From: an uncultured Sneathiellales bacterium
GTDB taxonomy: Bacteria; Pseudomonadota; Alphaproteobacteria; CAYFNG01
Length of the DNA stretch: 64,000 nucleotides
Assembly (NCBI GenBank): GCA_964344385.1
Contig: CAYFNG010000002.1
Coordinates: forward strand, 193,476 to 257,475
Reading direction: 5' to 3'
Under the pieces are notes generated by a model that had not been told where the DNA came from, did not search any database, and worked only from the letters and a program-made list of their open reading frames with translations. The first letter of the stretch is position 1, and every line of letters starts with the position of its first letter. The position numbers and the translations under genes are program-made. Positions 19,384 through 47,209 of this stretch are shown here, piece after piece.

Positions 19384-19385
19384 AC

Positions 19386-21812: not shown

Positions 21813-21840
21813 AAGTACTTATTTCTAGAAAAAAGTACTT
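21813..21840. promoter_or_regulatory. 28-bp composite palindrome (AAGTACTT-a-TTTCTAGAAA-a-AAGTACTT) inside a ~350-bp AT-rich intergenic island
   Basis: Read directly from the sequence. Two perfect 8-bp palindromes AAGTACTT lie 20 bp apart and flank a perfect 10-bp palindrome TTTCTAGAAA. The site is 125-150 bp upstream of the response-regulator start and ~200 bp upstream of the DUF2784 gene. Confidence 0.5.
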
Positions 21841-22041
21841 ATAACTTTCGTTTATTTTTCGAGTTCTCGCTCAAATAAAAAGGAAATAGTTTTTGATTTT
21901 CATTAGCGGGAAAAGGCGCTAAAGTTGCAGGCCAACCGCGTTTTCCCAATTTAATATTTAAAAACTGACAGCTACCTTTCATCTTTTTGCACGTTTAAGA
22001 TACAAATTTCTGTTCCCGAGCACCGGAGGTTCACCAATCAG

Positions 22042-22431
22042 ATGCTGTCCCGGGTGTTGGCCGACACGACGGTGGTGTTGCATTTCGCGTTCATACTGTT
22101 CGTGATCGGCGGCGGCATTCTGGTTCGCCGTTGGCCGCGGCTTGCCTGGGTGCACCTGCCGGCGGCGGCCTGGGGCGTCGGGATCGAATTCCTCGGCTGG
22201 ATCTGCCCGCTCACCTATCTGGAGAACCACTGGCGGGCCGCCGGGGCCGCCCAGGGCTATGACACCAGTTTCGTCGAACGCTACCTGATGCCGCTGATCT
22301 ATCCCGAACTGCTGGTCGACGGCCGCCTGCCGCGCAGCGCCTTCATTGCCATCGGCTTCGGCGTCCTGGCGATCAACCTGGTCATCTACGCCGATATCTG
22401 GCGCCGCCGAAAGCGCCGCCTGACCGGTTGA
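22042..22431 (+). CDS. DUF2784-family small membrane protein
   Basis: 129 aa, 3-4 TM segments, CPLTYLE motif. A paralog with the same architecture is at 43124-43555. Confidence 0.55.
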   Translation: MLSRVLADTTVVLHFAFILFVIGGGILVRRWPRLAWVHLPAAAWGVGIEFLGWICPLTYLENHWRAAGAAQGYDTSFVERYLMPLIYPELLVDGRLPRSAFIAIGFGVLAINLVIYADIWRRRKRRLTG

Positions 22432-29182: not shown

Positions 29183-29955
29183 TCCGGGTCGAGGATCTGT
29201 CGGTCACCTTTGGTCACGGCAACACCGAAGTCGTGGCCGTGTCCGGGGTATCGTTCCATGTCGCGGCGGGGGAGAGCTTCGGTCTGGTCGGCGAATCCGG
29301 TTCCGGCAAATCGACCGTGCTCAGGGTGATTGCCGGCCTCAATCCGGATTGGCAGGGGCGGATCGAAATCGACGGCGAACCGCTGGGCGCGCGGCGGTCG
29401 CCGGCCCAATACCGCCGGCTGCAGATGGTCTTCCAGGACCCCTACGGGTCGCTGCATCCGCGGCACACGGTCAACGACATCCTGGCCGAGCCGCTGGCAG
29501 TGCACCGGATTTCGGACCGTGACCGGCGCATTTGGCAGGCTCTGGACGAAGTGGGGTTGAGCCGCAATTTGCGCTTCCGCTATCCGCACCAGATCTCCGG
29601 CGGCCAGCGGCAAAGGGTGGCGATTGCCCGCGCCCTGATCCTGGAGCCGAGGGTGGTACTGCTGGACGAACCGACCTCGGCCCTCGACGTTTCGGTCCAG
29701 GCGGAAATCCTCAACCTGCTGGTCGGGCTGCAGCGGGACCGCGGCCTGACCTATCTGATGGTCAGCCACGACCTGGCCGTGGTCGCCCATCTGTGTGACC
29801 GGATCGCGGTGATGAACCGGGGGCAGGTGGTAGAGGAAACCACCGCCGAGCGCCTGCGGGCCGGTAAGGCGGTGCAGGGCTATACCAAACAGCTGTTGAC
29901 TGCCAGCCTGGGCTACGACCGTGAAGCGGTGGACGCCTTCGTCGACTTCGCCTGA
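29179..29955 (+). CDS. ABC transporter ATP-binding protein (DppF-like)
   Basis: Walker A GESGSGKST, signature ISGGQRQRV, Walker B LLDEPTSALD. Overlaps the previous gene by 4 bp. Confidence 0.85.
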   Translation: MIRVEDLSVTFGHGNTEVVAVSGVSFHVAAGESFGLVGESGSGKSTVLRVIAGLNPDWQGRIEIDGEPLGARRSPAQYRRLQMVFQDPYGSLHPRHTVNDILAEPLAVHRISDRDRRIWQALDEVGLSRNLRFRYPHQISGGQRQRVAIARALILEPRVVLLDEPTSALDVSVQAEILNLLVGLQRDRGLTYLMVSHDLAVVAHLCDRIAVMNRGQVVEETTAERLRAGKAVQGYTKQLLTASLGYDREAVDAFVDFA

Positions 29956-32276
29956 TCGATCGCCCGCCAGATTTTTTCCGGTGTTGCCGGCATGTCGAGG
30001 TCGGTGACCCCTAGCGGTGCCAACGCGTCGAGTACCGCGTTGATCACGCAGGGCATGGCGCCGGTGGTGCCGGCCTCGCCGCAGCCCTTGACGCCGAGCG
30101 GATTAGTGGTCGCCGGCACCGCGTGGAAGTCGAGCTTGAGGTCGGGGATATGGTCGGCCCGGGGCATGCCGTAATCCATGAACGAGCCGGTCAACACCTG
30201 GCCGTCCGCGTCGAGGACCATTTCCTCCAACAGGGCCTGGCCGATGCCCTGGACAACACCGCCATGGACCTGGCCCTCGACCAGCATGGGATTGATCAGA
30301 TTGCCGAAATCGTCGACCACGGTATAGCGGTCGATTTCGACGGCGCCGGTGTCCGGGTCGATTTCCACCTCGCAGACATGGCAGCCATTGGGGAAGGCCG
30401 AAGGCGGCGTATCGGTGGCCAGTTCGGTGTCCAGACTGTCGGGCAGATCCGGAGTACCGGGCGCCTCGGCCTTGACCTGGGAGGCCAGGTCGCGCAGTTC
30501 GATGCGCCGGTCGGTGCCGGCCACCTGGAAGGCGCCGGCGTGGAATTCGATATCCTCGACCGCAGCCTCCAGGATCTGCCCGGCCCACAGCCGGCCTTTC
30601 TCGATCACTGCGTCGGCGGCCTGGACGAAGGCGTTGCCGCTGGCGATGGTGGACTTCGAGCCCCCGGTCCCGCCGCCCAGCATCAACTCGTCGCTGTCGT
30701 CTTGGACCAGCTCGATCATATCGAACGGCAGGCCCAGGCGGTCGACCATCAACTGGGCGAAGGTGGTGGCGTGGCCCTGGCCCTGGTCGTGAGAGCCGGT
30801 CAGGATGGTGACCTTGCCGTCCGCCCCGAACCGGATGCCGCCCAGCTCCTTGCCCGGCGGGCCGGTGACTTCCAGATAGGTTGTCACGGCCCGGCCCCTG
30901 AGCCGGCCCCTTGCTTGCGACGCGGACTTGCGCGATGCACAACCCTGCCAGTCGGCGGCGTCCAGCGCCTTGTCCAGAAGGGTCGCGAAATCGCCGCTGT
31001 CATAGGTCAGGCCGGATGCGGCGGTAAACGGCATCGCCGATGCCGGGATCAGATTGCGGCGTCGGAGCTCGGCCGGGTCGCGGCTGGTTTCCCGGGCCGC
31101 CCGGTCAATCAGCCGTTCCATGACATAGACGCCTTCCGGCCGTCCCGCCCCGCGGTAGGGCGCAATGGAAACGGTGTTGGTATAGGCCGAGCGGCTGGTG
31201 ATCGCCATCAGTGGCGTCAGGTATGGGCCGGGGGCGTTCTTTTGGATATTGACCCCCGGCATCAGGGGACCAAAGGGCGAAGGATAGGCACCGAGATTGC
31301 CCAGCATGTCGATCTTCAGGGCGAGAAACCGGCCCTCGGCATCCAGCGCCAGCGCGGCGCGGGCCTGCATGTCGCGGCCCTGGGTGTCGGAAATGAAACT
31401 GCCGGTGCGCTCATCGGTCCATTTGACCGGCCGTTTCAGGTCGCGGGCGGCATGCAGAACCAGGACGTTTTCCGGGTATTGCTGGGATTTCATGCCGAAT
31501 GAGCCGCCAACATCGCCGGACAGTACGCGGATTCGCTCCTTGTCCACGTTCAGCACCGTGGCCAGCACGGCGCGCATGCCGATCACGCCCTGGCTGCCCA
31601 GATGCAAGGTGAAGCGGTCGGTCGCCGGGTCGAAATCGGCCAGCACGCTGCGCGGTTCGGTGGGGACGGCGGCGACCCGACTGATCGTCAGCGCGATCTC
31701 GGTGACATGGGCGGCATCGGCGAATGCCGCCTCGACCGCCGCCCCATCGCCATAGCGCCAGTCAATGCACTGATTGCCGACCGTGTCATGGATTTGGGGT
31801 GCCGCGGGTTCAAGGGCGGCTACCGGATCGGTCAACGCCGGCAGCGGTTCGATATCCCAGTCGATCAGTTCGGCCGCATCCTTGGCGGCATTGATCGTCT
31901 CGGCGACGATGAAGGCCAGGGGCTCGCCGACATAACGGACCTTTCCGCCAGCCAGGGGATAGCGTGCCGGAATCGCCGGCGGCGTCCCGTCGTGGTTCTT
32001 GATCGGGCTGGGGAAGGGAAAGGAGGCACAGCCCGCGGCTTCCATGTCGGCGGCGGTGTAGATCGCCAACACCCCCGGCGTGGTCAGGGCGGCGGACAGG
32101 TCCAGGCGGTGGACCCGGCCATGGGCGATCGGCGAGCGGAATACCAGCCCATAGGCTTGGTCGGGCAGGTTGATGTCGTCGACGAAGCGACCCTCGCCGC
32201 GCAACAGGCGCGGATCCTCCTTGCGCGACACCGGTTGGCCGACCGCGAATTTTGCCTCTGTGTGCTGTGGGTTCAT
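29913..32276 (-). CDS. Xanthine dehydrogenase family protein, molybdopterin-binding large subunit (CoxL/aldehyde oxidase-like)
   Basis: 787 aa. N-terminal a/b-hammerhead region (VGQPVSRKEDPRLLRGEGRFVDD). MoCo-binding segments (GGSFG, APYRGAGRPE, GGGTGGSKS) and a C-terminal GEAGT motif. No small (2Fe-2S) or medium (FAD) subunit genes adjacent. Confidence 0.85.
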   Translation of the reverse strand: MNPQHTEAKFAVGQPVSRKEDPRLLRGEGRFVDDINLPDQAYGLVFRSPIAHGRVHRLDLSAALTTPGVLAIYTAADMEAAGCASFPFPSPIKNHDGTPPAIPARYPLAGGKVRYVGEPLAFIVAETINAAKDAAELIDWDIEPLPALTDPVAALEPAAPQIHDTVGNQCIDWRYGDGAAVEAAFADAAHVTEIALTISRVAAVPTEPRSVLADFDPATDRFTLHLGSQGVIGMRAVLATVLNVDKERIRVLSGDVGGSFGMKSQQYPENVLVLHAARDLKRPVKWTDERTGSFISDTQGRDMQARAALALDAEGRFLALKIDMLGNLGAYPSPFGPLMPGVNIQKNAPGPYLTPLMAITSRSAYTNTVSIAPYRGAGRPEGVYVMERLIDRAARETSRDPAELRRRNLIPASAMPFTAASGLTYDSGDFATLLDKALDAADWQGCASRKSASQARGRLRGRAVTTYLEVTGPPGKELGGIRFGADGKVTILTGSHDQGQGHATTFAQLMVDRLGLPFDMIELVQDDSDELMLGGGTGGSKSTIASGNAFVQAADAVIEKGRLWAGQILEAAVEDIEFHAGAFQVAGTDRRIELRDLASQVKAEAPGTPDLPDSLDTELATDTPPSAFPNGCHVCEVEIDPDTGAVEIDRYTVVDDFGNLINPMLVEGQVHGGVVQGIGQALLEEMVLDADGQVLTGSFMDYGMPRADHIPDLKLDFHAVPATTNPLGVKGCGEAGTTGAMPCVINAVLDALAPLGVTDLDMPATPEKIWRAIDQAKSTKASTASRS

Positions 32277-32311
32277 GGCATTGCCCTCGCCTCTGCCTGG
32301 TCCGGTTCCGC

Positions 32312-34555
32312 CTAGCGGAACACGTAGATCGGGCTCGACCAGATCATATGGCCGTCTTCCTGGGTGATGCAGACATAGAGCGCATTGTCGCGGTCATCAA
32401 CCAGCGTCAGGCGCCGTTCGATCGTCATCGCCCGGTGCGGATTTGCATCCGGCAGGCGGAAGACGCGGATGCGCCGCCCCAGGCCGCCGGCGTCGAACAC
32501 CAAATCGTCATAACCGATCTCGGCGATCGGGATTTCGGCCTGCACCAGGGCGGTGTCGATGCGCAGGCTGCCGGCCTGTCCATCATCCAGCCAGGCATCG
32601 AAGCCGCCAATGCCGCCGGTGGTCAAGGTCACCCAGTCGACCCGGTCGGCGCCGGTCTGCTCGTAGCGCTTGTCGACATTGTAGCGGTTGATCGCCGCCA
32701 GCCTGGTGAAGCGGTTGCCGGACAGTTCGGCATGGCCGTCCCAAATGGTTTCGCGGCCGCGGCCGCGATATTCCGAGCCCTCCCAGATCACCCGGATGCG
32801 TGTGCCCAGCTCGTCCCGCCCATAGGGCCGGATGGTTTCGATGGTGTCCAGACCGTTGCGGATCTCGACCCGCTCGACCGGAGCCGATCCCACCAGATCG
32901 ACCCGAAATGCTATGTCCCCGTCGCCGCTTTGCAGGATATCGCCCATCATGGCCGTGCGGGTTTCCGAACCGGTTGTCGGACCCAGCGCCGGGTCCTCGA
33001 CGAAGCGGGTCGCCGGCGTGTCGAATTCGGCGGCTACGTTCAGCACCATGCGACACCCTGTGGTGGCGTAGTGGTGGCGCTGGCGCAGGGCCGCGGCCAG
33101 GCCGGCGCGGCTCAATTCGGTGGCCAGCATGCAGGTCAGCCCGCCATAGGATCCGAACTTGGTGGCCCCGGGATGGCTGGCACCGGGTCGCCCCTTGTGG
33201 CCGTCGGAATTGGCCAGGATGCCGACCCGGTAGCCCTGCTCGAAGGCATCGTGAACGATCCACTCGAAGGTGCCCCAGGCGGAGTGGACCTCGACGCCGC
33301 GTTCGATGCGGCCGTCATGGGCCAGCTTGATGTCGGCATAGCGGCCCCCGACATGGGCGAACACGACGACGTCTTCGCCGTCCAATTTCTCGAACAATTC
33401 CGCCGCGGTGTGGGCGTCGGTGTCGGCATCGCTCAGGTCGTCGACCAGGGCGTGGGAGGAACGCCGGATGGGGCGGCCCTCCTGCAGGTACAGCACGTTG
33501 CGGTCGCCGCCCAGCGCCGTGTTGCCCGACCATTCATAGCCGGGAAAGGCGACGAAACGGCCGGGCTCGTCGAACTCGGCGGTCAACCGGTTGAGCTCGT
33601 CCCAGAACCCCTTGGTGATCTGGAAGTCGTTACCCTGGTGGCAGGTGGCGTCGAGAAATGCCTTGTCGCGGGCGAAGCTGAAATAGTCGCGGGCCGAATT
33701 GGTGCCGATGGTTTCTTCCGACTGGCCGTGCAGATCGCCCCAATAGGGCAGCAGTTCGGCCGCGGCGACGATGCGCAGCGGGTTGCTGGCCGCGGCGACG
33801 GTGCCGTCCTCGGCCACCAGTTCGATCACCAGGTCACCGGGCTCGGTGACGGTCAGCCCCGCGACCTCGACGGTGAAATCCCCATCGGCGAAAGTGGCTT
33901 CCGCAGGCAGGCCGGCGACGGGCAGGTTGGCGCGCAAGGCAAAGCGCCCCTGGGCCCGGTTCGACGGGTTGCCCCATTTGTCTTCGCCTTTAAGGCACAG
34001 CCGGAAGGGCTGGCCGGCGCGGCGCAGGGTCGGCAGCACCGCCTTGTAGCGGCGCGCCGGCCCCGGCACGATGGCGATCTCAGGCTGCTGGGGCAGTTCG
34101 GTATAGGTGTAGGTGGCGATGGCGTCGACCAGCACCCGGAATTCGAAGGTTTCCTCGCAGAAGGTCTGCAGCCGGATGCCGGGCGAGCCCTGGCGGCGGT
34201 CGCCGAAGCGGATGGTGATGGTGTCACCTTGGCTGAGGTAACCCCGCACCACCTTGACGTAGAGGGTCTTGTCCCAGGGCCGGATGTTGCGCTTGATGTC
34301 GTATTCGATCTGCAGCACGGCGCCGTTGCTGGCCTCGACAGTGGTGTAATTCGGCGCGCCGGGATCGTCGAACTGCGGCCGGCCCATGTCGGAGGCGAAC
34401 CGGTGCACGATCTTGATCGAGCCGGTGTCGTCGATGCCGAACTTGCCGGCCGTGTAGGTGACGGTGAATTCCTGGTAGCTGCCGGCCTCGAAAGCACCGG
34501 TCGGCGACACGGTCGCGCTGCCCATGTCTTCTGGCAGATAGGAGGAGTGCCCCAT
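32312..34555 (-). CDS. DUF3604-family protein (uncharacterised; possible metal-dependent hydrolase)
   Basis: 747 aa, no signal peptide. YWGDLHGQS motif recalled as characteristic of DUF3604. Only 22 bp downstream of the GntR regulator on the same strand. Confidence 0.5.
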   Translation of the reverse strand: MGHSSYLPEDMGSATVSPTGAFEAGSYQEFTVTYTAGKFGIDDTGSIKIVHRFASDMGRPQFDDPGAPNYTTVEASNGAVLQIEYDIKRNIRPWDKTLYVKVVRGYLSQGDTITIRFGDRRQGSPGIRLQTFCEETFEFRVLVDAIATYTYTELPQQPEIAIVPGPARRYKAVLPTLRRAGQPFRLCLKGEDKWGNPSNRAQGRFALRANLPVAGLPAEATFADGDFTVEVAGLTVTEPGDLVIELVAEDGTVAAASNPLRIVAAAELLPYWGDLHGQSEETIGTNSARDYFSFARDKAFLDATCHQGNDFQITKGFWDELNRLTAEFDEPGRFVAFPGYEWSGNTALGGDRNVLYLQEGRPIRRSSHALVDDLSDADTDAHTAAELFEKLDGEDVVVFAHVGGRYADIKLAHDGRIERGVEVHSAWGTFEWIVHDAFEQGYRVGILANSDGHKGRPGASHPGATKFGSYGGLTCMLATELSRAGLAAALRQRHHYATTGCRMVLNVAAEFDTPATRFVEDPALGPTTGSETRTAMMGDILQSGDGDIAFRVDLVGSAPVERVEIRNGLDTIETIRPYGRDELGTRIRVIWEGSEYRGRGRETIWDGHAELSGNRFTRLAAINRYNVDKRYEQTGADRVDWVTLTTGGIGGFDAWLDDGQAGSLRIDTALVQAEIPIAEIGYDDLVFDAGGLGRRIRVFRLPDANPHRAMTIERRLTLVDDRDNALYVCITQEDGHMIWSSPIYVFR

Positions 34556-35591: not shown

Positions 35592-36350
35592 TTGAGCATG
35601 TTCGGATTGGAAATCCAGATTCTGGCCATCGTGTGCCTGGCGGTCGCAACCGGCGGCATCGTCAAGGGCGTGACGGGGATAGGCCTGCCGATCGTGTCGA
35701 TCGCCATCCTGCTCAACTTCCTCGATCCGATGACCACCCTGGCCACGATCATCGGTCCGCTGCTGGTGACCAACCTTTGGCAGGCCGTGTCGTCGGGCGA
35801 CCTCAGGCCCGCCTTGCGCCGCTTCTGGCCGATGACGTTGTGTTTCTTCATTTTTCTGCTGATCGGTGCCCAATTGGTGGTCGGGTTGGACGAAAAGGTG
35901 ATGTTCGCGGTGTTGGGGGCGGTGGTCGCCAGCTTTGCCCTGATGAACCTGTTGCGGCCGCGCCCCCATGCTCTGGGCCTCAGGGCCGAGAAATGGCTCA
36001 GCCCCCTGGCCGGGGCGGCCGGTGGGCTGTTGGGCGGGCTGACCACCATCTGGGGCCCACCGATGATGATGCTGTTCGTGCTGTTGAAGCTGGACAAGGA
36101 CGAATGGGTGCGCACGGTCGGCCTGATCTGGTTCATCGGCTCGGTGCCGCTGGCCTTCGCCTATTGGCAGAACGGTATCCTGAGCGGCGAGCGGATCCCG
36201 CTCACCCTGGTCGCCTGTGTGCCCGGCATGCTGGGCATCCTGGCCGGCGAATGGGTGCGTCGCCGCATCGACCAGGAAAGCTTCCGCAAGGTGCTGCTGA
36301 TCGCCCTGGCCCTGATCGGCCTCAACCTGATCCGCCGGGCGGTGTTCTAG
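35592..36350 (+). CDS. Sulfite exporter TauE/SafE family membrane protein
   Basis: 252 aa, 7-8 TM segments, duplicated GxGxGxxxVP-like motifs (TGGIVKGVTGIGLPIVS; AAGGLLGGLTTIWGPP). Confidence 0.8.
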   Translation: MSMFGLEIQILAIVCLAVATGGIVKGVTGIGLPIVSIAILLNFLDPMTTLATIIGPLLVTNLWQAVSSGDLRPALRRFWPMTLCFFIFLLIGAQLVVGLDEKVMFAVLGAVVASFALMNLLRPRPHALGLRAEKWLSPLAGAAGGLLGGLTTIWGPPMMMLFVLLKLDKDEWVRTVGLIWFIGSVPLAFAYWQNGILSGERIPLTLVACVPGMLGILAGEWVRRRIDQESFRKVLLIALALIGLNLIRRAVF

Positions 36351-36468: not shown

Positions 36469-36951
36469 ATGTCCACGACCCTGACCTTTGGCCGCCGCCA
36501 CCTGCTCATCCTACCGTTATTGCTGGTGGCGCTGTTTTTGGCCGCCGGCGCCGTTCAGGCCGGCGAAGTCAACGCGTCGCGCTGGACCGGCGTCGCCATC
36601 GACGGCACCGACCCGGTGGCCTATTTCACCGAGAGCCGCGCGGTCGAAGGCGCCAAGCAGTTCTCCACCGAATGGAACGGCGCCACCTGGCGGTTCGCCA
36701 GCGCCGCCAACTTGGCCGCCTTCACCGCCGATCCGGAAAAGTTCGCGCCGCAATACGGCGGCTACTGCGCCTGGGCGGTGTCCCAGGGCTATACCGCCGA
36801 CATCGATCCGCAGGCCTGGAAGATCGTCGACGGCAAGCTTTACCTGAATTATTCCAAGGACGTGCAGCGCAACTGGGAAGGCGACGTGGCGGGCCACATC
36901 AAGATGGCCGACGCCAACTGGCCCGGCATTCGCGGCAAGCTCGCGAAATAA
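36469..36951 (+). CDS. YHS-domain secreted protein
   Basis: 160 aa with signal peptide (LLILPLLLVALFLAAGAVQA). Motifs GTDPVAYF and GKLYLNYSKDVQRNW are typical of the YHS-domain periplasmic family. Confidence 0.6.
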   Translation: MSTTLTFGRRHLLILPLLLVALFLAAGAVQAGEVNASRWTGVAIDGTDPVAYFTESRAVEGAKQFSTEWNGATWRFASAANLAAFTADPEKFAPQYGGYCAWAVSQGYTADIDPQAWKIVDGKLYLNYSKDVQRNWEGDVAGHIKMADANWPGIRGKLAK

Positions 36952-37039: not shown

Positions 37040-38269
37040 ATGACCGCGCCCTTGACCGCCACCGATCTGATTGACAGCGGCCACGCCTGGGTCCGTTTGG
37101 GCGTGGCGCTGGCGCTCAGCACCATCGGCGGCATCGGCCTGTGGTCGGTGATCGTCGCCCTGCCCACCATTCAGGCCGAATTCGGCACCGATCGGGGCGA
37201 TGCCTCGCTGGCCTATACCGCGACGATGCTGGGGTTCGCTTTTGGCGGCGTGCTGATGGGGCGGCTGTCGGACCGGTTCGGGATCATGGTGCCGGTGATC
37301 ATCGGCGCCCTGATGCTGGGGGCCGGCTACCTGCTGGCCGCCCGGGCCACCGAATTCTGGCACTTCATGGCGGCCCAGGCGGTGGCCATCGGGCTGCTGG
37401 GCTGCTCGGCCACGTTTGGGCCCCTGGTTGCCGAAGTCTCCCTGTGGTTCAAGAAGCGTCGCGGCATCGCCGTCGCCGTGGTTGCCAGCGGCAACTACCT
37501 GTCCGGCACCTTGTGGCCGCCGATCCTGCAATACGGCATCGAGACCATCGGCTGGCGTGACACCCACACCCTGGTCGGCGTGCTGTGCGTCGTGACCATG
37601 CTGCCGCTGGCCGCGGCCCTGCGGCGCCGGGCACCGATTGAGGACACCGAGCCGGTGCGCCCGGTCGGGGCTTCCAATGGCGCCGCGACGCGCCCGGCCC
37701 TGCCGCTGCTGCAGGTGCTGCTGGTGATCGCCGGCATCGGGTGCTGCATCGCCATGTCGATGCCCCAGGTCCATATCGTTGCCTATTGCGGCGATCTCGG
37801 CTACGGCCCGGCGCGGGGCGCGGAAATGCTGTCGATCATGCTGGGCCTGGGTGTGGTCAGCCGCCTGGCCTCGGGCATGATCGCCGATCGGATCGGCGGC
37901 CTGGCGACGCTGATCCTGGGGTCGACCCTGCAATGCCTGGCGCTGTTCCTCTACCTGCCGTTCGACGGCTTGGTGTCTCTCTATGTGGTCTCCGCGATTT
38001 TTGGCCTGGCCCAGGGCGGTATCGTGCCCAGCTATGCGCTGATTGTCCGCGACTTCTTCCCGGCTCGCCAGGCCGGCGGGCGGATCAGCCTGGTGATGAT
38101 GGCCACGGTTGTCGGCATGGCGGCGGGTGGCTGGATGTCCGGCAAGATCTTCGACCTGACCGGCTCCTACCAAGTCGCCTTTATCAACGGCATCGCCTGG
38201 AACCTGTTGAACATGTCGATCGCATTCTGGCTGCTGATCGGCCGCCGCCGTTTCATGGCTGTTGCCTGA
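37040..38269 (+). CDS. MFS transporter
   Basis: 409 aa, 12 TM segments, MFS signature-like loop GRLSDRFG between TM2 and TM3. Confidence 0.8.
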   Translation: MTAPLTATDLIDSGHAWVRLGVALALSTIGGIGLWSVIVALPTIQAEFGTDRGDASLAYTATMLGFAFGGVLMGRLSDRFGIMVPVIIGALMLGAGYLLAARATEFWHFMAAQAVAIGLLGCSATFGPLVAEVSLWFKKRRGIAVAVVASGNYLSGTLWPPILQYGIETIGWRDTHTLVGVLCVVTMLPLAAALRRRAPIEDTEPVRPVGASNGAATRPALPLLQVLLVIAGIGCCIAMSMPQVHIVAYCGDLGYGPARGAEMLSIMLGLGVVSRLASGMIADRIGGLATLILGSTLQCLALFLYLPFDGLVSLYVVSAIFGLAQGGIVPSYALIVRDFFPARQAGGRISLVMMATVVGMAAGGWMSGKIFDLTGSYQVAFINGIAWNLLNMSIAFWLLIGRRRFMAVA

Positions 38270-38308
38270 GTGTTTGTGCCGAAATGTGCCTAAAGCACAT
38301 TTCGGGAG

Positions 38309-38405
38309 TCTGTTCCGTCCCGCTCCCCCGCCCAACCACCCATAGGGTACCCTCGCATTGGGTAGTTGGGCGGGGGGTGGTTGGGCGGGGGAGCGGGACG
38401 GAACA
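38309..38405. repeat. 97-bp hairpin element: perfect 32-bp inverted repeat with a 33-nt loop that carries a near-copy of one arm
   Basis: CTGTTCCGTCCCGCTCCCCCGCCCAACCACCC ... GGGTGGTTGGGCGGGGGAGCGGGACGGAACAG. Preceded at 38286-38308 by a second perfect 11-bp hairpin CCGAAATGTGC-ctaaa-GCACATTTCGG. Lies in the convergent gap between the MFS gene and the rdhA-like gene. Confidence 0.7.
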
Positions 38406-38426
38406 GTGGCGTCAATATACAGACCC

Positions 38427-40649
38427 CTAATTCTTGGCTGGCTTGGCCGCGCCGCCGCCGTAGATCGACGGCCGGCTGGCCACGCCCTGCGGTCCGTCCG
38501 GGTCCGCCGGTCGTGGCACATAGTGGTCGGGTGCCGGCCCGCCTTGCGCCTGCCGGGCCGCCGCCTGGGCGGGTGTTTCCAGGTCGGCCGCCGCGGCCAG
38601 GGCCGCCTTGCGGTCGACGGCTTGCGGCCGCAGGTCGTTGGGTACCGGCATGGCGTCGGCGTGGTAATAGGCCATCTTCTGCTTGGCCGGGTCGATCCTG
38701 TGGTCCAGGTTCAGTTCGCGGCGGTTGACGCCCTTGACCGGTTCGACGCAGACGCCATCGACGACCTCCAGGTCGAACCACCATTTCTTGGCGGCGTTGA
38801 TCCGCCCTTTTCCCAGCTTGTCGTCCAACCGGACCGCCAGCGGCACCAGCAGCGGCTTCAGCCAGCGGGCATTGATGCCGCACCATGACGCCAGCCGCTC
38901 CAGGATCGGCCCGTCGGCGGTGACCACCTTGTTCAGAGGGCAGGTCTTCATGCACCGCCCGCAGGCCGAGCCGCGGGCATTGGTCAGGCGATAGCGGGCG
39001 CAGCGCTCGACGTCGGGCTTCCACATCTCATAGCCGTTGAACATCACCTTATCCCCCCACGGGATGGCGTCGCAGGGGCACTCCCGGGCGCATTTCCAAC
39101 AATGCTCGCAGAAATATTGGAGGCCGAAATCGATCGGCCGGTCAGGTTCCAGCGGCAGGTCGGTGGTCACCACAACGGTCTTCAGGCGCGGCCCGACAAA
39201 CGGGTTCAGGACCAGTTCGCCGATCCGCGACAGCTCGCCCAACCCGGCCCACAGGACCAGCGGGATATGCAGCAGGTCGCTGTCGACATTGGTTTGCGAA
39301 CGGGCCGGAAAGCCCTCGCGGCGCAGGGTCTCGGCCATCACCCCGGCGATTTCGGCGCCGCGCAGATAGGCCCGCATCGACTGGCTGCCCGATATCCAGT
39401 CGTCGCCCGAGGCCCCCTCCATGGTCTCGAACTCCTGGTCGATCAGCATCACCACCGCGTATTTGTGGTAGGGCGTGATCGGCTGTCCGTCGGCGCCGTG
39501 GCTGAACCAGGCATAGCGGGGGATCTCGCAGATCCCGGTCAAATTGGCGCCCAGCAGGTAGGACAGCGATTTCAGCGCCCTCGCGTTGGCGGCGGGGTCG
39601 GCGAAGCGCTTGCGGTCGCACTCCGCCGCCGCCTCGCCGCCCTGCAGCGGCACCATCGCCCGCATCGATGCCATCATGCCCGAGGTATGGGGCTGCTTGA
39701 AGGCGAAGCGGTTCCGCTCTTTCAGCGCCTTGTCGCCGAGATCGCCGCGCAGGGCGCGCTCGAAGAACGCCGCACGCTTCGATACCCGTGGCACCTCGTC
39801 ATCCAGGATCAGCGTGGTCGGTCGCTCCACCCGCTTCACCGTCTCCATCGGATAGTCGCCCAAATGGGTGGCCCGGGCCGCCCGCCGGTTGCGCTCGCCG
39901 CCCGAGGTAGCGCCGTTCTGGCCCAGCCAATAGCCAAAGCCCCGCGATTTCAGGGCCGCCTTGGCCAGCGGCCGGTCGACGGCCAGGTCATAGTCGGTCG
40001 ACACGGCGGCGATCGAGAAACCCCGGTCCAGATATGGGTTCCTTAAGGCATCGCCATCACGCACCGCCAATCCGGCCAGCACCGCCAGACGGTCGAGGTC
40101 CAGTGCGCCGGCGCCCATGACATGGGGATGGGCGGCAAAGCCGAGCTGCAGGATGTGGCCGCTGAGGCAAACCGCGATGCCGCCGATCCGTGCGTCCGCC
40201 GCTTCCGCCAGGGCAGGCGCGATCCAGTCGCGGGCCGGGTTGCCGGCCTCAGGCACCCGGCCATGTTCCAGCAGCAGGACCACGGCATAAGGGTGGTCGG
40301 GGATCTCGGCGCCCTTGGCCCAGGCGTTCTCCGGGATGCGGCAGATCCCGACCTGGGAGGCGTTCATGAAATAGGCATAGCCCTTGGCGTCGATCATCCG
40401 CCGTTCCGCATCGTCCGGCACCGGCGCCCGGGCCGGGGCGGGTTCGTGCAGGGCGGTGCGGACAAAGATATCGAGATAGTCCCTCAATGCAGCCGCGAGG
40501 TGGCCCTGCGCGGGTCCGTCATAGCCGGGTGCCGCGACGTGGGGCCGGGCCGCCTCGGCCGCGATGACGGCGTCGTCACGCGGCAGGGTTTCCAGGGGAA
40601 ACGGGCCGAAATGGTAGGGGCGGTGGTTAGCCTTGGTGCGAAACAGCAT
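38427..40649 (-). CDS. rdhA: Reductive dehalogenase homologue, cytoplasmic 'catabolic' RdhA type (cobalamin plus two [4Fe-4S]), NpRdhA/BhbA-like
   Basis: 740 aa, no Tat/Sec signal. C-terminal twin ferredoxin-like motifs FCEHCWKCARECPCDAIP (CxxCxxCxxxCP) and C...CGRCMKTCP. Size and architecture match long oxygen-tolerant catabolic RdhAs. QueG is excluded by size. Confidence 0.55.
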   Translation of the reverse strand: MLFRTKANHRPYHFGPFPLETLPRDDAVIAAEAARPHVAAPGYDGPAQGHLAAALRDYLDIFVRTALHEPAPARAPVPDDAERRMIDAKGYAYFMNASQVGICRIPENAWAKGAEIPDHPYAVVLLLEHGRVPEAGNPARDWIAPALAEAADARIGGIAVCLSGHILQLGFAAHPHVMGAGALDLDRLAVLAGLAVRDGDALRNPYLDRGFSIAAVSTDYDLAVDRPLAKAALKSRGFGYWLGQNGATSGGERNRRAARATHLGDYPMETVKRVERPTTLILDDEVPRVSKRAAFFERALRGDLGDKALKERNRFAFKQPHTSGMMASMRAMVPLQGGEAAAECDRKRFADPAANARALKSLSYLLGANLTGICEIPRYAWFSHGADGQPITPYHKYAVVMLIDQEFETMEGASGDDWISGSQSMRAYLRGAEIAGVMAETLRREGFPARSQTNVDSDLLHIPLVLWAGLGELSRIGELVLNPFVGPRLKTVVVTTDLPLEPDRPIDFGLQYFCEHCWKCARECPCDAIPWGDKVMFNGYEMWKPDVERCARYRLTNARGSACGRCMKTCPLNKVVTADGPILERLASWCGINARWLKPLLVPLAVRLDDKLGKGRINAAKKWWFDLEVVDGVCVEPVKGVNRRELNLDHRIDPAKQKMAYYHADAMPVPNDLRPQAVDRKAALAAAADLETPAQAAARQAQGGPAPDHYVPRPADPDGPQGVASRPSIYGGGAAKPAKN

Positions 40650-40813
40650 GATCCGTTTTGCCGGAAGAATAGGTTCAGACGCGTCTGTCCAGTCTCAGGC
40701 TGGAACGGATCGAGTGTTTCATCGGATTTTTCGGATGGCAAGTCCGGGCCGCTTCCGGCGGTGCGGACGCTACCTCCCTATAGCGGCCGCACCCGGCTTG
40801 CAGATGGTGGGGA

Positions 40814-41008
40814 TCAGGAGTCGGGAAACTGCGTGCCTTGGTAACCTTTCGCCGCACGGGTCATGGCGAATTCGTCGTATTGACGTGCCACTTCTTCAAT
40901 ATTACGGGCGATGTCATCAAGATCCGAGTTGATGTGATGGCAATCTGTCTTAATTGCTCTTATGAACTCGGCCGCAAGTTTTAAGTCGTTCATCCATGAA
41001 AACGGCAT
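40814..41008 (-). CDS. Small hypothetical protein (64 aa), low-GC, atypical codon usage
   Basis: Start MPFSWMNDLKLAAEF... with RBS GGAGG 7 nt upstream. ~48% GC against ~65% background, A/T-ending codons. Predicted all-helical, acidic. Confidence 0.45.
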   Translation of the reverse strand: MPFSWMNDLKLAAEFIRAIKTDCHHINSDLDDIARNIEEVARQYDEFAMTRAAKGYQGTQFPDS

Positions 41009-41109: not shown

Positions 41110-41188
41110 TTAACAGGCGGTTAACAACCTTGCATGAACGTAAGAAACTATTTTCACGATCTCGTGAACAGGGTTAACCGGCGGTTAA
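41110..41188. promoter_or_regulatory. Operator cluster: two copies of TTAAC-N5-GTTAA 64 bp apart, flanking a perfect 16-bp palindrome TTCACGATCTCGTGAA
   Basis: Read directly: TTAACaggcgGTTAA at 41110-41124, TTCACGATCTCGTGAA at 41153-41168, TTAACcggcgGTTAA at 41174-41188. Lies 100-180 bp upstream of the small low-GC gene and rdhA (minus strand) and downstream of the CoA-transferase genes. Confidence 0.55.
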
Positions 41189-41329: not shown

Positions 41330-42091
41330 TCAGCTGCGCCAAAAACCTTCCTTGTCAATCTGGTGCAGGGCCGCCAGTTCCTCGACGCCGGGCACCGGGG
41401 TTTCGCCGAAATCCGGCAACGTCTTCAGGTCCCAGCCGGTGTTTTCGAGGACTTCCTCCAGCGTGTGCCCGGGATGCACAGCGGCCAGGTGCAGCTCATT
41501 GTCCGGCCCGTATGGCCTCAGGACCGCCCGGTCGGTGATCACCGCGGCCGGGCCGCCGCCTTCCAGACCGGCTTCCTTGCGCGCGTTGCCGCCGCTCAGG
41601 AAACCCGGCGAAGTTACAAAATCGACCTTTTCCACCAGGCGATGCTTCTGGTGGTTCATGATGATGATCAGCCGTTCGGCCATGGCGGCGATGTCGGGGG
41701 CGCCGCCGGAACCCGGCAGCTTGACGGTCGGTTCGGCGATATCGCCGATATAGGAGGTGTTGATGTTGCCGTAACGGTCGATCTCCGCCCCGCCGATGAA
41801 GCCGGCGTGGATACGGCCGCCCGACAGCAGTCCCATGATCTGGATCAGGCCGGTGGTCCAGGCGGCGCCCAGTTGGTTGGGGCCGTCGCACATGGTGTAC
41901 AGCATGCCGTCGGCCGGCTGGTAGCGGGCGACGCCGCTTTCGAACAGGCCGACCGCGTTGGGAGCATGGGTCAGGCGGGCAACGCCGAAGGCGGTGATCG
42001 GCAGCCGCATACCAACGAAGATGCGCTCGCCGTCCTTGATCTCGCGGGCGGCGGCAATGATCATCAGTTCCTGGGTCGAATAGTCGGACAT
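41330..42091 (-). CDS. CoA-transferase subunit B (3-oxoacid / glutaconate CoA-transferase family)
   Basis: 253 aa. Family I CoA-transferase beta-subunit motifs (GMRLPITAF...; SGGAPD; ESGVAR with the catalytic Glu region). Confidence 0.85.
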   Translation of the reverse strand: MSDYSTQELMIIAAAREIKDGERIFVGMRLPITAFGVARLTHAPNAVGLFESGVARYQPADGMLYTMCDGPNQLGAAWTTGLIQIMGLLSGGRIHAGFIGGAEIDRYGNINTSYIGDIAEPTVKLPGSGGAPDIAAMAERLIIIMNHQKHRLVEKVDFVTSPGFLSGGNARKEAGLEGGGPAAVITDRAVLRPYGPDNELHLAAVHPGHTLEEVLENTGWDLKTLPDFGETPVPGVEELAALHQIDKEGFWRS

Positions 42092-42098
42092 CGCCGCC

Positions 42099-43082
42099 TC
42101 ACTCCGTCGCGTAATTAGCCGGGGCCGAGGGCACGTCGCCGAGGATCCGCAAATCCTCCAACTGGCCCCCCAGCTTGGTGCGATAGGCCTCGTGGTCGGG
42201 CAGGTCGCGCACCCATTCGTCGCACCAGCGGTCGAACTCGCGGGGGTCGCGGGTTTCCTTGTGATAGTGGTGGAAGAAGGCGTTGTCCCGCTTCCAGCGG
42301 CCGATCAACGGCGCCGGGTGGCAGGCGGCCGGGATATGACAGACCGCGTTGACCCCGAAGCCTGGGATCAGGACCCGGCTGGGGTCCGAGGCGATGACCT
42401 CCGGTTCGACGATTTCGTCGGCCAGGACGACGATCTTCTCGGCCGCGATCGAGGCCTCCTGGGTCAGACCGGTCGATCCCCAGATGTGGGAATTGCCGAA
42501 CCGGTCGGCCCGCTGCACCACCAGGAAGGCGATGTCGGGTTTCAGGGCCGGGACCAGCGCCACCGGCTCATGGGCTTCCGAGAACGGGTTCTCGGCCAGC
42601 CGGATGCGCGGGTTCGACTTGATGATGTCGGATCCCAGGATGGTTTTGACCGGTACATAGGGCAGGCCGTAGGCGCCGGCGAAAAACGCCATACCGATCG
42701 AGAAGTTGGAATAGTCGTAGATGGTGATCGGGTTGGGTTCGCCCTTCTCGGCGGCGCGGCGGAAATTGTGCCCCATGCCGCCGGAGACGTTGCCGACCCA
42801 GGCGCCGGTCACCTCGGAGACGCAACCGGCGCCGATCAGCATGTCGGTCGAAATGTCGGAAATCGGCGCGATGAGGTTCAGGTTCCGCCGTTCCTGCCGG
42901 ATCAGTTCATGGGTCGCGGCAAACGGGATGGCGTTTTCCAGCGCCGCCCCCAATACGATGCTGGAGCCGTCCGGCACCAGTTCCCGGATCGCGTCAGCGA
43001 TCGAACAAAGCTTGTCGCCGTTAATGGTCCGTCCCTCCCGTCTCTTGCGGCCAATCGCCCGGCCGGCCGCGATACCTAGCAA
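42099..43082 (-). CDS. CoA-transferase subunit A
   Basis: Homology begins near ...INGDKLCSIADAIRELVPDGSSIVLGAALENAIPFAATHELIRQ. No in-frame ATG or GTG in the expected region. Candidates are the TTG at 43082 or an ATT at ~43034 that follows a GGGAGGGA RBS. The long N-terminal extension in the ORF track (to 43382) is rejected because it overlaps the DUF2784 gene. Confidence 0.7.
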   Translation of the reverse strand: MLGIAAGRAIGRKRREGRTINGDKLCSIADAIRELVPDGSSIVLGAALENAIPFAATHELIRQERRNLNLIAPISDISTDMLIGAGCVSEVTGAWVGNVSGGMGHNFRRAAEKGEPNPITIYDYSNFSIGMAFFAGAYGLPYVPVKTILGSDIIKSNPRIRLAENPFSEAHEPVALVPALKPDIAFLVVQRADRFGNSHIWGSTGLTQEASIAAEKIVVLADEIVEPEVIASDPSRVLIPGFGVNAVCHIPAACHPAPLIGRWKRDNAFFHHYHKETRDPREFDRWCDEWVRDLPDHEAYRTKLGGQLEDLRILGDVPSAPANYATE

Positions 43083-43123: not shown

Positions 43124-43555
43124 TCAGCCATTGGCGGTATTGCAGCCGATCGGGAAATAGAGCAACAGGGCGGCCGCCACGACCGTGGCAAAGAATCCGA
43201 TCGTCGACAGGCGGTCGACCCGTTCGGCGTTCGAATTCAATCCGGTGATCCGGTCGGTCAGGTACTTCATGTAGCCGCCGCCAGGCGGCGGCTTGCCGCG
43301 CCGCTCGCGCAGGCGCCATTGCAGGTCGGTGATCACGCAGTAGCCACCGGGTTTGCCCAGCAGCAGGCCTAGCCCGTACCACGACGCCAGCACGGTTGCG
43401 GCGAGGGCCAGGTGCCAGATCCTTGTGGCGCAGAACAGCCAGCCGACTGCGATGAACAGGATCAAGGCCAGGTGCACAATGTGCAGCAACAGGTTGGCGG
43501 CTTCCTCGGCAATCCGCTGGGTCAGGGGTGGGGTGGGTCGTAACGGTTCGGGCAT
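43124..43555 (-). CDS. DUF2784-family small membrane protein (paralog of 22042-22431)
   Basis: 143 aa. Shares a conserved H..H.A.ILF...G......W.HL..A.W...G..C.ITDL/TYLE pattern with the other copy. Confidence 0.5.
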   Translation of the reverse strand: MPEPLRPTPPLTQRIAEEAANLLLHIVHLALILFIAVGWLFCATRIWHLALAATVLASWYGLGLLLGKPGGYCVITDLQWRLRERRGKPPPGGGYMKYLTDRITGLNSNAERVDRLSTIGFFATVVAAALLLYFPIGCNTANG

Positions 43556-43563
43556 CGGCTACT

Positions 43564-45396
<1,833 letters not shown>

Positions 45397-45407
45397 GGCC
45401 CCTCCGG

Positions 45408-46028
45408 TCAGGGCATGCGCAACAGGAACAGGCCCTGTTCGCTGAGCAGATTGGCAAACGGGACGGCGCCGGCGATGCCGCCGGAATGGCCGTTGCGGGT
45501 CAGCGCGATGCGACGCTCGATCACCGCGCCGACCTCGGCACACAGGTCGACAAAGTCGCGGATGGTGCAGAAATGGATGTTTTCGGTTTCGTACCAGGGC
45601 GTGGGCAGGGTCTTGGTCATCGGCATGCGGCCGCGGGCCAGCAGGTGCCAGCGCACCCGCCAATAGCCGAAATTGGGAAACGACACGATCGCGCGGTTGC
45701 CGATCCGCAACATTTCGCCAAGCACGATGCGCGGGTTGTGGGTCGCCTGCAGGGTTTGGCTCAGGATTACGAAATCGAAGGCGCCGCTGGGATAGTCGAC
45801 CAGGTCCTTGTCGGCGTCCCCCTGGACCACCGAGAGGCCCCTTGCGACGCAGGCGTTGACCCCGCTTTGGCTCAGCTCGATGCCGCGGCCGTCGACGTCC
45901 TTCTCGCGTGCCAGATGGGTCAGCAACGCCCCGTCGCTGCAGCCGATGTCCAGGACCCGCGAGCCGGGTGCGACCATGTTGGCGACCAGCAATTGGTCGC
46001 GGCGGATGGTCGATCCATTCCCGCTCAC
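45408..46028 (-). CDS. metW: Methionine biosynthesis protein MetW
   Basis: 206 aa. SAM-MTase-like motif [12 protein letters not shown]. Translationally coupled (ATGA) to metX upstream. Confidence 0.85.
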
Positions 46029-47209
46029 AGGCGCAGGCCCCGGTGTTCCGCCGCCCCGGCCAGGAAGCCGCGCAAGGTGGCATGAAACTCCGGTTCGTCC
46101 AGCAGGAAGGCGTCATGGCCGCGGTCGGTTTCGACCTCGACAAAGCTGACATTGGCGGCCGCCGCGTTCAAGGCGTGCACGATGGCCCGGTTTTCCGGGG
46201 TCGGGAACAGCCAGTCGCTGGTGAAGGAGACGACGCAGAAGCGGGTGCGAACCCCGTCGAAGGCGCGGGCCAGGGTGCCGCCATAGTCCGCCGCCAGGTC
46301 GAAATAGTCCATTGCCCGGGTGATATAGAGGTAGGAATTGGCGTCGAACCGGTCGACGAAGGTAATGCCCTGGTGGCGCAGATAGCTTTCGACCTGGAAA
46401 TCGGCATCGAAACCGTAGGACAGCGCGTCGCGATCCTGCAGATTGCGGGCGAACTTGCGATGCAAAGCCGGTTCCGACAGGTAGGTGATATGGGCCGCCA
46501 TGCGCGCCACCGCCAGTCCGGCCCGGGGCGCGGTGTCGTGGCTCAAATAGTCGCCGCCATGCCAGTTGGGATCCGCCATCACCGCCTGGCGGCCGACCTC
46601 GTGGAAGGCGATGTTCTGGGCCGAATGGCGGGCGGCACAGGCGATCGGCACCGCCGAGAATACCCGGTCGGGATAGCTGGCCGCCCATTGCAGCACCTGC
46701 ATGCCGCCCATCGATCCGCCAATCACGCAGAACAGCTGCTGAATGCCGAGATAGTCCAGCAGCATGGCCTGGGCGTTGACCATGTCGCGGACGGTTATCA
46801 CCGGAAAGTTCAGGCCCCAGGGTCGCCCCGTCGCCGGATCGATCTCCTTGGGGCCGGTCGAACCCTGGCAGCCGCCCAGGACGTTGGAACAGATCACGAA
46901 ATAGCGGTCGGTGTCGATCACCCGACCGGGTCCGACCAGCATCTCCCACCAGCCCGGCTTGGCGGTCACCGGGTGGCGGTTGGCGACGTGCTGGTCGCCG
47001 GTCAGGGCATGGCAGACCAGGACCGCGTTGGACCGGTCGGCGTTCAAAGTGCCGTAAGTCTGGTAGGCGATGGTGATCGGGCTTAGATCGATGCCGGAAT
47101 CGAGGCGGAGCGGCCGGTCGGCGCCCAGCGTCACTGCATGGCCGGGCGCCAGCGGTTCCGGCTGGCAGCGCCCGGCGACCTTGGCGCCCGGATGCAAATT
47201 CTGCGTCAT
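46025..47209 (-). CDS. metX: Homoserine O-acetyltransferase MetX
   Basis: 394 aa. a/b-hydrolase with GGSMGG nucleophile motif. Classic metX-metW pair. Confidence 0.9.

Follow-up and report, generated by a model that had tools for sequence, protein, structure and literature searches.

The gene rdhA, located in a 64,000-nucleotide (nt) stretch of contig CAYFNG010000002.1 (the window), encodes a reductive dehalogenase homolog (RdhA) of 740 amino acids (aa). The protein is probably a soluble, monomeric, cytoplasmic enzyme with a corrinoid and two [4Fe-4S] clusters. It is of the truncated catabolic type known from NpRdhA of Nitratireductor pacificus, a crystallized, oxygen-tolerant B12 enzyme that removes bromine or chlorine from phenolics, and would act as a stand-alone enzyme that detoxifies or scavenges marine halophenolics. 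RdhA belongs to the family by sequence, domain architecture, and conserved catalytic and cluster residues, it lacks export and anchor features, and its gene has no conserved operon partner. The cofactors bound by the enzyme, its electron donor, the class of its substrates, its tolerance of oxygen and its role in the cell are predicted. To our knowledge, oxygen tolerance among reductive dehalogenases is confined to the catabolic RdhAs, of which very few have been characterized. They are wanted for the bioremediation of brominated flame retardants and herbicides.

38427-40649, minus strand: rdhA, reductive dehalogenase homolog of 740 aa, stop codon included, ATG start (list of open reading frames and translation)

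Family identity

A phmmer search against the Protein Data Bank (PDB) placed query residues 8-703 on residues 7-696 of the NpRdhA chain (4RAS, E = 3.7e-192), with 49% identity over 683 aligned columns. Beyond NpRdhA, the PDB matches were the respiratory PceA (2.8e-22, residues 463-623) and QueG (5e-3). The same ranking was obtained on the structural level. An AlphaFold model built from 25 sequences reached a mean predicted local distance difference test score (pLDDT) of 65.5, with about 90 over residues 20-240. In a Foldseek search of the PDB, its best 14 matches were all NpRdhA chains (E about 1e-52, TM score 0.69-0.74, about 710 columns), while PceA (about 1e-9) and QueG (about 1e-3) followed lower. 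The quality of the model is only moderate, and it was therefore left out of considerations on pocket geometry. The family model TIGR02486 aligned to residues 394-574 with 153.1 bits (E = 1.5e-44). The QueG model TIGR00276 yielded 20.7 bits against a cut-off of 200. A previous reading of this DNA, made from its letters and termed here the sequence-only reading, had called the protein an NpRdhA-type cytoplasmic catabolic RdhA. This call was right: the alignment with 4RAS covers the full length, the active-site residues are present, QueG is excluded, and neither a Tat signal nor an RdhB is present.

An independent gene call on the metagenome contig encoding the identical protein gave the same boundaries for rdhA. 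M1 is shared by 24 relatives without exception, which confirms the start codon. The gene has a GC content of about 0.67 and a GC content at third codon positions (GC3) of 0.86, with 0.64 GC for the whole window. This native composition speaks against a recent import.

The amino terminus offers no route for export. Residues 1-60 contain neither an RR pair nor a hydrophobic leader, and no motif resembling a twin-arginine translocation (Tat) signal was found in residues 1-80. The sole hydropathy segment (residues 155-173) scores 1.62 against a threshold of 1.6 and lies within a soluble domain aligned to NpRdhA. No RdhB-like gene adjoins rdhA; the neighbors encode a CoA-transferase, a hydrophilic 64-aa open reading frame (ORF) and an MFS transporter. 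N-terminus, hydropathy and neighbors thus agree with the earlier claim of a protein that has neither a Tat signal nor a membrane anchor encoded nearby. At the other end, Pfam and NCBIfam models detected no FMN, NAD or 2Fe-2S domain of a C-terminal PDOR reductase, and the protein ends at residue 740.

These features decide on a respiratory RdhA or a mis-assigned QueG as alternative identities. Both have the Fe-S motifs of the superfamily in common with the query and produced the weak PDB matches mentioned above (PceA 2.8e-22, QueG 5e-3). A Tat signal, a convincing membrane helix and an RdhB are missing, whereas the 740 aa and the duplicated N-terminal domain constitute the catabolic architecture. 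Localization features, architecture and the TIGR00276 score refute either identity, whose probability is close to nil.

Domains, cluster motifs and active site

The query is organized like NpRdhA, and the following features were mapped on the minus strand.

39660-40628, minus strand: N-terminal half, vestigial duplicate of the cobalamin-binding core (about residues 8-330, approximate), collinear with NpRdhA 7 to about 325
38928-39470, minus strand: catalytic cobalamin-binding core and Fe-S domain, residues 394-574 (TIGR02486 match and mapping on NpRdhA)
39366-39368, minus strand: Y428, maps to NpRdhA Y426
39180-39182, minus strand: K490, maps to NpRdhA K488
38988-38990, minus strand: R554, maps to NpRdhA R552
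39075-39110, minus strand: first [4Fe-4S] motif C514-x2-C517-x2-C520-x3-C524-P (regular expression; invariant in 74 sequences)
38937-39002, minus strand: second [4Fe-4S] motif C550-x12-C563-x2-C566-x3-C570-P (regular expression; invariant in 74 sequences)
38430-38549, minus strand: C-terminal Pro/Gly-rich tail, about residues 701-740, pattern P-x2-Y-x-P-[TR]-P ... G-P-x-G ... Y-G

A vestigial N-terminal duplicate of the cobalamin core has been described for catabolic RdhAs (PMC10463259). It is this duplicate that makes NpRdhA-type enzymes monomeric. The twin ferredoxin-like cysteine motifs named in the sequence-only reading were both recovered from the 740-aa translation by regular expression.

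The active site of NpRdhA has been described in detail. F290, F310, P311, A419 and M423 form the hydrophobic part of the pocket (Halliwell et al., PMC7565698). S422, K488 and R552 are polar and bind the substrate hydroxyl group, Y426 is the proton donor, and K307 stands at the pocket entrance (PMC7565698). A419 lines the site of a second halogen, and an A419M variant shifted the specificity (PMC7565698). Alignment mapping identified F295, F315, S424, M425, Y428, K490 and R554 of the query as identical pocket residues, with S424 corresponding to NpRdhA S422. The suggested comparison with 4RAS for the Tyr, Lys and Arg residues thus found all of them conserved. Conservation was assessed in an alignment of 74 sequences, comprising the query, NpRdhA and 72 relatives from fetched genome loci. 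F290, F310, S422, M423, Y426, K488 and R552 (NpRdhA numbering) as well as the eight cluster cysteines are invariant in it.

Three positions differ between the pockets: K307 is replaced by R312, P311 by A316 and A419 by G421. In view of the role of A419, the substrate preference may therefore differ from that of NpRdhA. G421, A316 and R312 predict a somewhat larger or altered pocket. The C-terminal tail has no counterpart in the aligned NpRdhA chain, as the alignment stops at query residue 703. Its conserved stretch spans about 35 aa, with P707 and Y730 unchanged throughout 25 members of the clade. Speculatively, a redox partner might dock onto the tail.

A marine clade of truncated RdhAs

The 72 relatives are 58-81% identical to the query and only 46-50% identical to NpRdhA. 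They therefore form a separate orthologous clade. In a collection of species-representative genomes, 448 stretches encode a relative of RdhA. The best 80 of these derive mostly from metagenome-assembled genomes (MAGs) of marine Alpha- and Gammaproteobacteria. Gene neighborhoods were compared across 78 other fetched loci with an rdhA match. One locus (L056) belongs to an isolate genome, Oceanibacterium hippocampi CECT 7691, whose ortholog is 65% identical to the query. At least 78 other loci encode a protein closer to the query than NpRdhA is. Among 8000 candidates scored, 3152 database proteins matched at E <= 1e-10, many of them named 'Fe-S protein' or 'ferredoxin' by their source. With 3152 such proteins and 448 genome stretches, the family is not rare, contrary to the sequence-only reading. 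The clade is large, mostly marine, under-annotated and biochemically uncharacterized.

The literature already recognizes a class of 'truncated cytosolic' RdhAs, whose members exceed 700 aa, retain a vestigial cobalamin domain and lack a reductase domain (PMC12219181; PMC10463259). A literature text search joining RdhA, Tara Oceans and Alphaproteobacteria gave no match. It is a tentative proposal, possible rather than probable, that the group consists of distinct truncated catabolic RdhA orthologs with an altered, enlarged pocket and a conserved Pro/Gly-rich tail in which one Tyr is invariant, and without a redox partner encoded next to them. The substrates would then differ from 3,5-dibromo-4-hydroxybenzoate. 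Part of this proposal is that Alpha- and Gammaproteobacteria of the open water and the deep sea would commonly carry the group, which databases would largely under-annotate. Candidate substrates would be natural halophenols of larger size or with iodine, or alternatively halogenated hydroxyphenylacetates that enter the Paa- or CoA-dependent routes encoded next to the gene in some lineages. If the proposal holds, a ferredoxin of general cellular use could bind to the tail, and aerobic removal by this group may be of quantitative importance in the marine organohalogen cycle.

Another reading of the clade keeps the RdhA fold and assigns it a different B12/Fe-S reductive chemistry, comparable to QueG, in a housekeeping role apart from aryl-halide reduction. 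Such a function would explain the stand-alone position of the gene and its breadth across marine MAGs, and it agrees with the surroundings in the window (MetX, chorismate mutase, HisC, prephenate dehydrogenase, NrdJ, RecQ). The lack of a conserved catabolic partner, the fixed pocket substitutions, the additional conserved tail and the uncharacterized state of the clade fit as well. A housekeeping reductase is nevertheless quite improbable: all residues that bind the phenolic hydroxyl group and donate the proton in NpRdhA are invariant across the clade, the nearest characterized proteins are all dehalogenases, and the similarity to QueG is marginal.

Proposed mechanism

The mechanism proposed for RdhA as a catabolic dehalogenase follows the homology to NpRdhA. 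Electrons from NAD(P)H would pass through a separately encoded, non-adjacent pair of ferredoxin and ferredoxin reductase to the two [4Fe-4S] clusters, which would reduce the cobalamin. S424, K490 and R554 would hold an ortho-halogenated phenolic compound by its hydroxyl group, with the halogen ligated to cobalt. Electron transfer would break the carbon-halogen bond, and Y428, paired with K490, would protonate the carbon. The expected products are halide and a dehalogenated phenol open to ordinary aromatic catabolism. The role is most likely the detoxification or scavenging of natural marine bromo- or iodophenolics, not respiration. The gene itself seems to stand alone and has a strong hairpin at its 3' end.

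Several observations weigh against a phenol dehalogenase of the NpRdhA type. The TIGR02486 score of RdhA is 7 bits under the curated cut-off of 160.35, while the NpRdhA control reaches 171.9 bits. PF13486 has no match in RdhA at E <= 0.01, and the only Pfam hit is Fer4_7 below its gathering score. NpRdhA, used as control, likewise lacks a PF13486 match; because this proven enzyme fails too, the negative result reflects the model, which misses the long catabolic RdhAs, and not the protein, and PF13486 was discarded as a membership criterion. Of the profile check suggested in the sequence-only reading, the TIGR02486 part thus indicated homology, 7 bits short of the cut-off, and the PF13486 part would have misled; taken at face value, the Pfam outcome would have counted as a refutation under the terms of that reading. 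The pLDDT of the AlphaFold model falls below 50 at residues 510-662, so that structural support for the Fe-S region comes from the sequence itself. The three pocket changes are fixed in the clade (R in 73/74 sequences, A or S in 73/74, G in 73/74), and the clade holds no biochemically characterized member. Genes for ferredoxin or ferredoxin oxidoreductase are absent from the annotated flanks (about 29.2-49.4 kb), unlike in the NpRdhA cluster. Finally, rdhA stands alone in a housekeeping region, where no direct pointer to a catabolic pathway is given.

Neighborhood of rdhA

On the minus strand, the gene order is RecQ, a DUF2784 protein (43124-43555), CoA-transferase A, CoA-transferase B, a 680-bp spacer with the 64-aa ORF, and rdhA. 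Downstream of rdhA, the MFS transporter gene (37040-38269) and genes for a YHS-domain protein and TauE are located in convergent orientation on the plus strand.

41330-43082, minus strand: glutaconate-type class I CoA-transferase, subunit A 42099-43082 and subunit B 41330-42091 (Pfam CoA_trans)
37040-38269, plus strand: MFS transporter, monocarboxylate/aromatic-acid type by weak scores (Pfam MFS_1; NCBIfam matches all below cut-off)

The CoA-transferase genes lie on the same strand as rdhA, 680 bp upstream, and the spacer has 53% GC. Both subunits align with the chains A and B of 1POI (E about 1e-39 each). PcaIJ of the beta-ketoadipate pathway, which would link the transferase to 4-hydroxybenzoate, was rejected as an identity: TIGR02429 gave 28 bits against a cut-off of 128, TIGR02428 39 bits against a cut-off of 243, and the best structural relative was the glutaconate CoA-transferase 1POI. 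The DUF2784 protein (43124-43555) was considered as a disguised RdhB and rejected as well. It is the only small membrane protein encoded nearby, at a distance of 2.5 kb; none of the other loci encodes a relative close to rdhA, and the window contains a paralog elsewhere.

The sequence-only reading had combined these genes into one regulated array for halogenated organic acids. CoA-transferase A and B, the low-GC small gene and rdhA are present on the minus strand as it had named them. In the full version of this model, CoA-transferase A/B, small gene, operators and rdhA make up one co-regulated unit that ends with rdhA and degrades halogenated organic acids via CoA thioesters. The position of the genes on one strand and close together speaks for it, and so does the finding that JtRdhA enables Escherichia coli W to grow on 3-bromo-4-hydroxyphenylacetate (PMC10463259). 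Comparison of the loci did not support the array. Homologs of the CoA-transferases, the small ORF, the DUF2784 protein and the MFS transporter were found by tblastn near rdhA in 0/78 other loci. In favor of the model, CoA-related genes do occur near rdhA in other lineages, namely an AMP-binding ligase, the SDR-AMP ligase pair, paaABCDE and an enoyl-CoA hydratase in L020. Such genes are frequent in these genomes by a rough estimate, and chance adjacency is plausible. The transferase is of the glutaconate type and shows no tie to aromatic acids, and within the 680-bp spacer lies an independent small gene that has boxes of its own upstream and a hairpin after it. A common CoA-thioester pathway is unlikely on this evidence, and a stand-alone rdhA is preferred.

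A universal operon or redox partner was detected neither by tblastn, nor by de novo clustering of 763 neighboring ORFs, nor by Pfam annotation of 111 immediate neighbors. The commonest cluster among the 763 ORFs is the AMP-binding ligase, which occurs within 5 kb in 15/78 loci. The 111 immediate neighbors comprise 79 Pfam families, a diversity that also argues against the pathway model. SDR (7), 3-hydroxyisobutyrate-dehydrogenase-like proteins (6), PaaA (5) and MFS (4) lead the list, and the 25 most frequent families include no ferredoxin or reductase family.

Two contexts recur among the more distant members of the clade. MAGs of five gammaproteobacterial species (L061, L062, L065, L068, L075; rdhA about 61% identity) have the order DUF485-SSF symporter-rdhA-paaABCDE on the same strand, the last being a complete operon for phenylacetyl-CoA epoxidase. 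In these five loci, a Rieske-oxygenase-like gene, recognized by eye, is located divergently upstream of rdhA. Six Rhodospirillales MAGs (L041, L046, L047, L054, L058, L064) have the order rdhA-SDR-AMP ligase-EamA-(1157-aa protein) on the same strand. A second, short RdhA-like ORF (327-354 aa) was observed on the opposite strand about 1.5 kb upstream in L041, L046, L054 and L058. In the closest relative, L020, the enoyl-CoA hydratase gene is situated upstream of rdhA. In L012 (4909-7988), genes of a TRAP transporter immediately precede rdhA on its strand and abut the ORF without a gap; DctP was assigned by Pfam, DctQ and DctM by size and appearance. BhbA is presumably paired with the TRAP-type binding protein BhbB. 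The recurrent contexts weakly support aromatic or organic-acid substrates, in a lineage-specific manner; they do not support the operon proposed for the window. A 3.1-kb match in L055 was considered as a fusion of RdhA and reductase and rejected, since it comprises two proteins, an RdhA of 745 aa and, after it, an Fe-S protein of 318 aa.

A small gene with CtrA-type boxes in the spacer

The spacer upstream of rdhA contains the following features.

40814-41008, minus strand: 64-aa hydrophilic small ORF, separate unit (independently gene-called; atypical composition, GC 0.48, GC3 0.54)
41110-41188: two CtrA-box consensus sites, TTAACAGGCGGTTAAC at 41110-41125 and TTAACCGCCGGTTAAC at 41173-41188 (minus strand)
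40760-40793, minus strand: hairpin I5 with 13-nt arms, 8-nt loop and 92% complementarity (inverted repeat), shortly after the small-ORF stop and upstream of the rdhA start

The motif TTAA-N7-TTAA occurs twice in the 64-kb window (41110-41124 and 41174-41188), compared with 0.01 occurrences expected. Both sites are exact copies of TTAA-N7-TTAAC, the sequence recognized by CtrA, a regulator of the cell cycle in Alphaproteobacteria. They are located 116 and 180 nt upstream of the ATG of the small ORF and not beside rdhA. The small ORF was compared exhaustively by HMMER with 1.84 billion representative proteins, which yielded five other matches at E <= 0.001. Four of the five belong to a rare family of small proteins of 57-81 aa with the N-terminal pattern W-x-x-DLKLAA-x-F-[VI]-[RK]-[SA]-I-x-T. 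The relatives (L083, L084/L085, L087/L089, L090-L092) are encoded in genomic contexts unrelated to rdhA. An exact CtrA box was found upstream of the relatives in L083 (at -119) and in L087/L089 (at -105), and a box with one mismatch in L084/L085 (at -93). Exact boxes precede the small ORF by about 105-120 nt in 3/5 lineages, and a fourth has the box with one mismatch. Three lineages have a second conserved small ORF downstream (71-86 aa, M-[AT]-[SF]-[QE]-YR...LM...LRR), which is missing in the window. The consensus TTAA-N7-TTAAC occurs in papers on CtrA (e.g. PMC3692519, PMC4046655).

Because relatives of the small ORF have the same box elsewhere, the boxes belong to the small gene and not demonstrably to rdhA. 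The spacer features therefore appear to form a separate small unit. The sequence-only reading had described them as an operator cluster. The repeated palindromes are real and non-random; as operators serving rdhA they did not hold, the sites being CtrA-box consensus sites upstream of the small ORF. The hairpin at 40760-40793 has no U-tract and was not called by the terminator scan. The gap between the small ORF and the rdhA start measures 164 bp.

The 3' end of rdhA and RNA-level features

38309-38407: perfect 32-bp-stem hairpin of 99 nt in the interval where rdhA and the MFS gene converge, starting 20 nt past the rdhA stop

The 157-nt region at the 3' end of rdhA has a folding energy (dG) of -105.9 kcal/mol (z -11.7). 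The arms of the 32-bp hairpin match exactly, and the element was found only once in the window. It is probably a bidirectional transcript end or a stabilizer. A stem of 32 bp is unusually long for a terminator, and the element may be a REP- or MITE-like palindrome. A second hairpin of 12 bp (38279-38305) adjoins it and serves the convergent MFS gene.

Neither a cobalamin riboswitch nor any other Rfam RNA was detected at gathering thresholds in the whole window, nor at E <= 1 in the region 36-44 kb. The only Rfam 'matches' in 36-44 kb come from miRNA models and are artifacts of the palindromic 3' hairpin, which these models hit on both strands. A search for tRNA genes found none. Scans of 38.2-41.4 kb returned no promoter-like sites for sigma-70 and terminator-like sites at or below chance; both scans are uninformative for an alphaproteobacterium.

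Host and remaining window

51478-53790, minus strand: NrdJ, class II adenosylcobalamin-dependent ribonucleotide reductase with TSCPD domain

The presence of NrdJ indicates that the host has access to B12. Its closest named relatives, at 73-76% identity, come from Ferrovibrio, Hypericibacter, Allostella, Stellaceae, Dongiaceae and Rhodospirillales MAGs. The host is thus a Rhodospirillales-like, uncultured alphaproteobacterium, and these relatives bear out the alphaproteobacterial origin given in the sequence-only reading. The wider window is of housekeeping character and encodes MetX, chorismate mutase, an aminotransferase (HisC), prephenate dehydrogenase and enzymes of polysaccharide synthesis.

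Positions 1-20000 form a polysaccharide and cell-surface cluster with genes for a sulfotransferase, a Wzx-like flippase, a Wzz/tyrosine kinase, a sugar transferase and a Wzy-like ligase. A 1398-aa SdrD_B-repeat protein is also encoded there. GC drops to 0.56-0.60 in the 6-11 kb region, which has few confident gene calls. A stretch of 54% GC (21001-22000) precedes the first of two paralogous genes for small DUF2784 membrane proteins (22042-22431, plus strand; 43124-43555, minus strand). The first is located directly upstream of a gene for a 661-aa OYE/Pyr_redox_2 flavoprotein resembling 2,4-dienoyl-CoA reductase, the second upstream of the CoA-transferase pair.

The minus-strand region 29913-34555 encodes the large subunit of a molybdenum hydroxylase (787 aa), followed by a 747-aa metallohydrolase of the DUF3604/CehA-McbA-like type. 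No FAD or 2Fe-2S small-subunit genes were recognized beside these two genes. DUF3604 homologs are also encoded a few kb from rdhA in L012 and L020. On the plus strand, a TauE/SafE-type exporter gene (35592-36350) adjoins the gene for a YHS-domain '(seleno)protein' member (36469-36951; NF041384, 173.7 bits), whose N-terminus resembles a signal anchor. The longest ORF for RecQ (43564-46152, minus strand, 862 aa) probably reaches too far in the 5' direction, as the helicase domain begins at residue 275. An ORF of high GC3 (45408-46028) overlaps it in another frame, and the true RecQ start is likely near 45.4 kb.

Implications

Many tens of species belong to the clade; most of them are marine Alpha- and Gammaproteobacteria represented only by MAGs. 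The clade combines the full NpRdhA catalytic set with a fixed, slightly larger pocket. A single characterized member would show whether aerobic pelagic bacteria debrominate or deiodinate natural halophenols. It might also reveal the electron supply of truncated RdhAs, NpRdhA included. For the window, the gain is mainly a correct annotation together with a corrected operon and operator model.

Comparison with known systems

QueG (5D08, TIGR00276) shares with the query the class III B12 superfamily and the ferredoxin-like motifs; the similarity is marginal. Respiratory RdhAs, e.g. PceA from Sulfurospirillum multivorans (4UQU) and the RDH complex 8Q4H, share the cobalamin core and the two Fe-S motifs. 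An equivalent of the proton-donor Tyr is present in respiratory RdhAs (PMC7565698). They have about 460-500 aa and are Tat-exported, dimeric and RdhB-anchored, whereas the query has none of these properties.

The short cytosolic debrominases Ros_A3X954 from Roseobacter and A0A2T7UTL8 from Pararhodobacter are Tat-less catabolic reductive dehalogenases like the query. Both are marine and act on bromo- or iodophenols (PMC13101508). They differ by their short length, a PF13486 match at residues 174-269 and the lack of an N-terminal duplication, while the query has 740 aa, is duplicated and does not match PF13486.

BhbA from Comamonas sp. 7D-2, JtRdhA from Jhaorihella thermophila and the query belong to the same cytoplasmic family with vestigial duplication and a Y-K/R dyad. 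BhbA and JtRdhA are oxygen-tolerant and act on ortho-halophenols (PMC10463259). Compared by description, these two enzymes are self-sufficient, whereas the query ends in a Pro/Gly tail in place of a reductase domain. The gene for BhbA is part of a plasmid-borne catabolic cluster for bromoxynil; rdhA of the window is chromosomal, has native composition and lacks such a cluster.

The closest known system is NpRdhA (4RAS), which is of the same length class and collinear with query residues 8-703. Both proteins possess the vestigial N-terminal domain, the catalytic cobalamin core and two [4Fe-4S] clusters, and both lack a Tat signal and a C-terminal reductase domain. The NpRdhA cluster includes genes for a ferredoxin oxidoreductase and ferredoxins (PMC10463259), which the flanks of the query do not. 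At 49% identity, the query belongs to a separate clade and differs by the substitutions K307R, P311A and A419G, two insertions of four residues at about 588-605, and the conserved C-terminal tail of about 35 aa. The S/Y/K/R catalytic set is identical, and so are F290, F310 and M423. All catabolic RdhAs characterized so far act on ortho-halogenated phenols and are oxygen-tolerant (PMC10463259).

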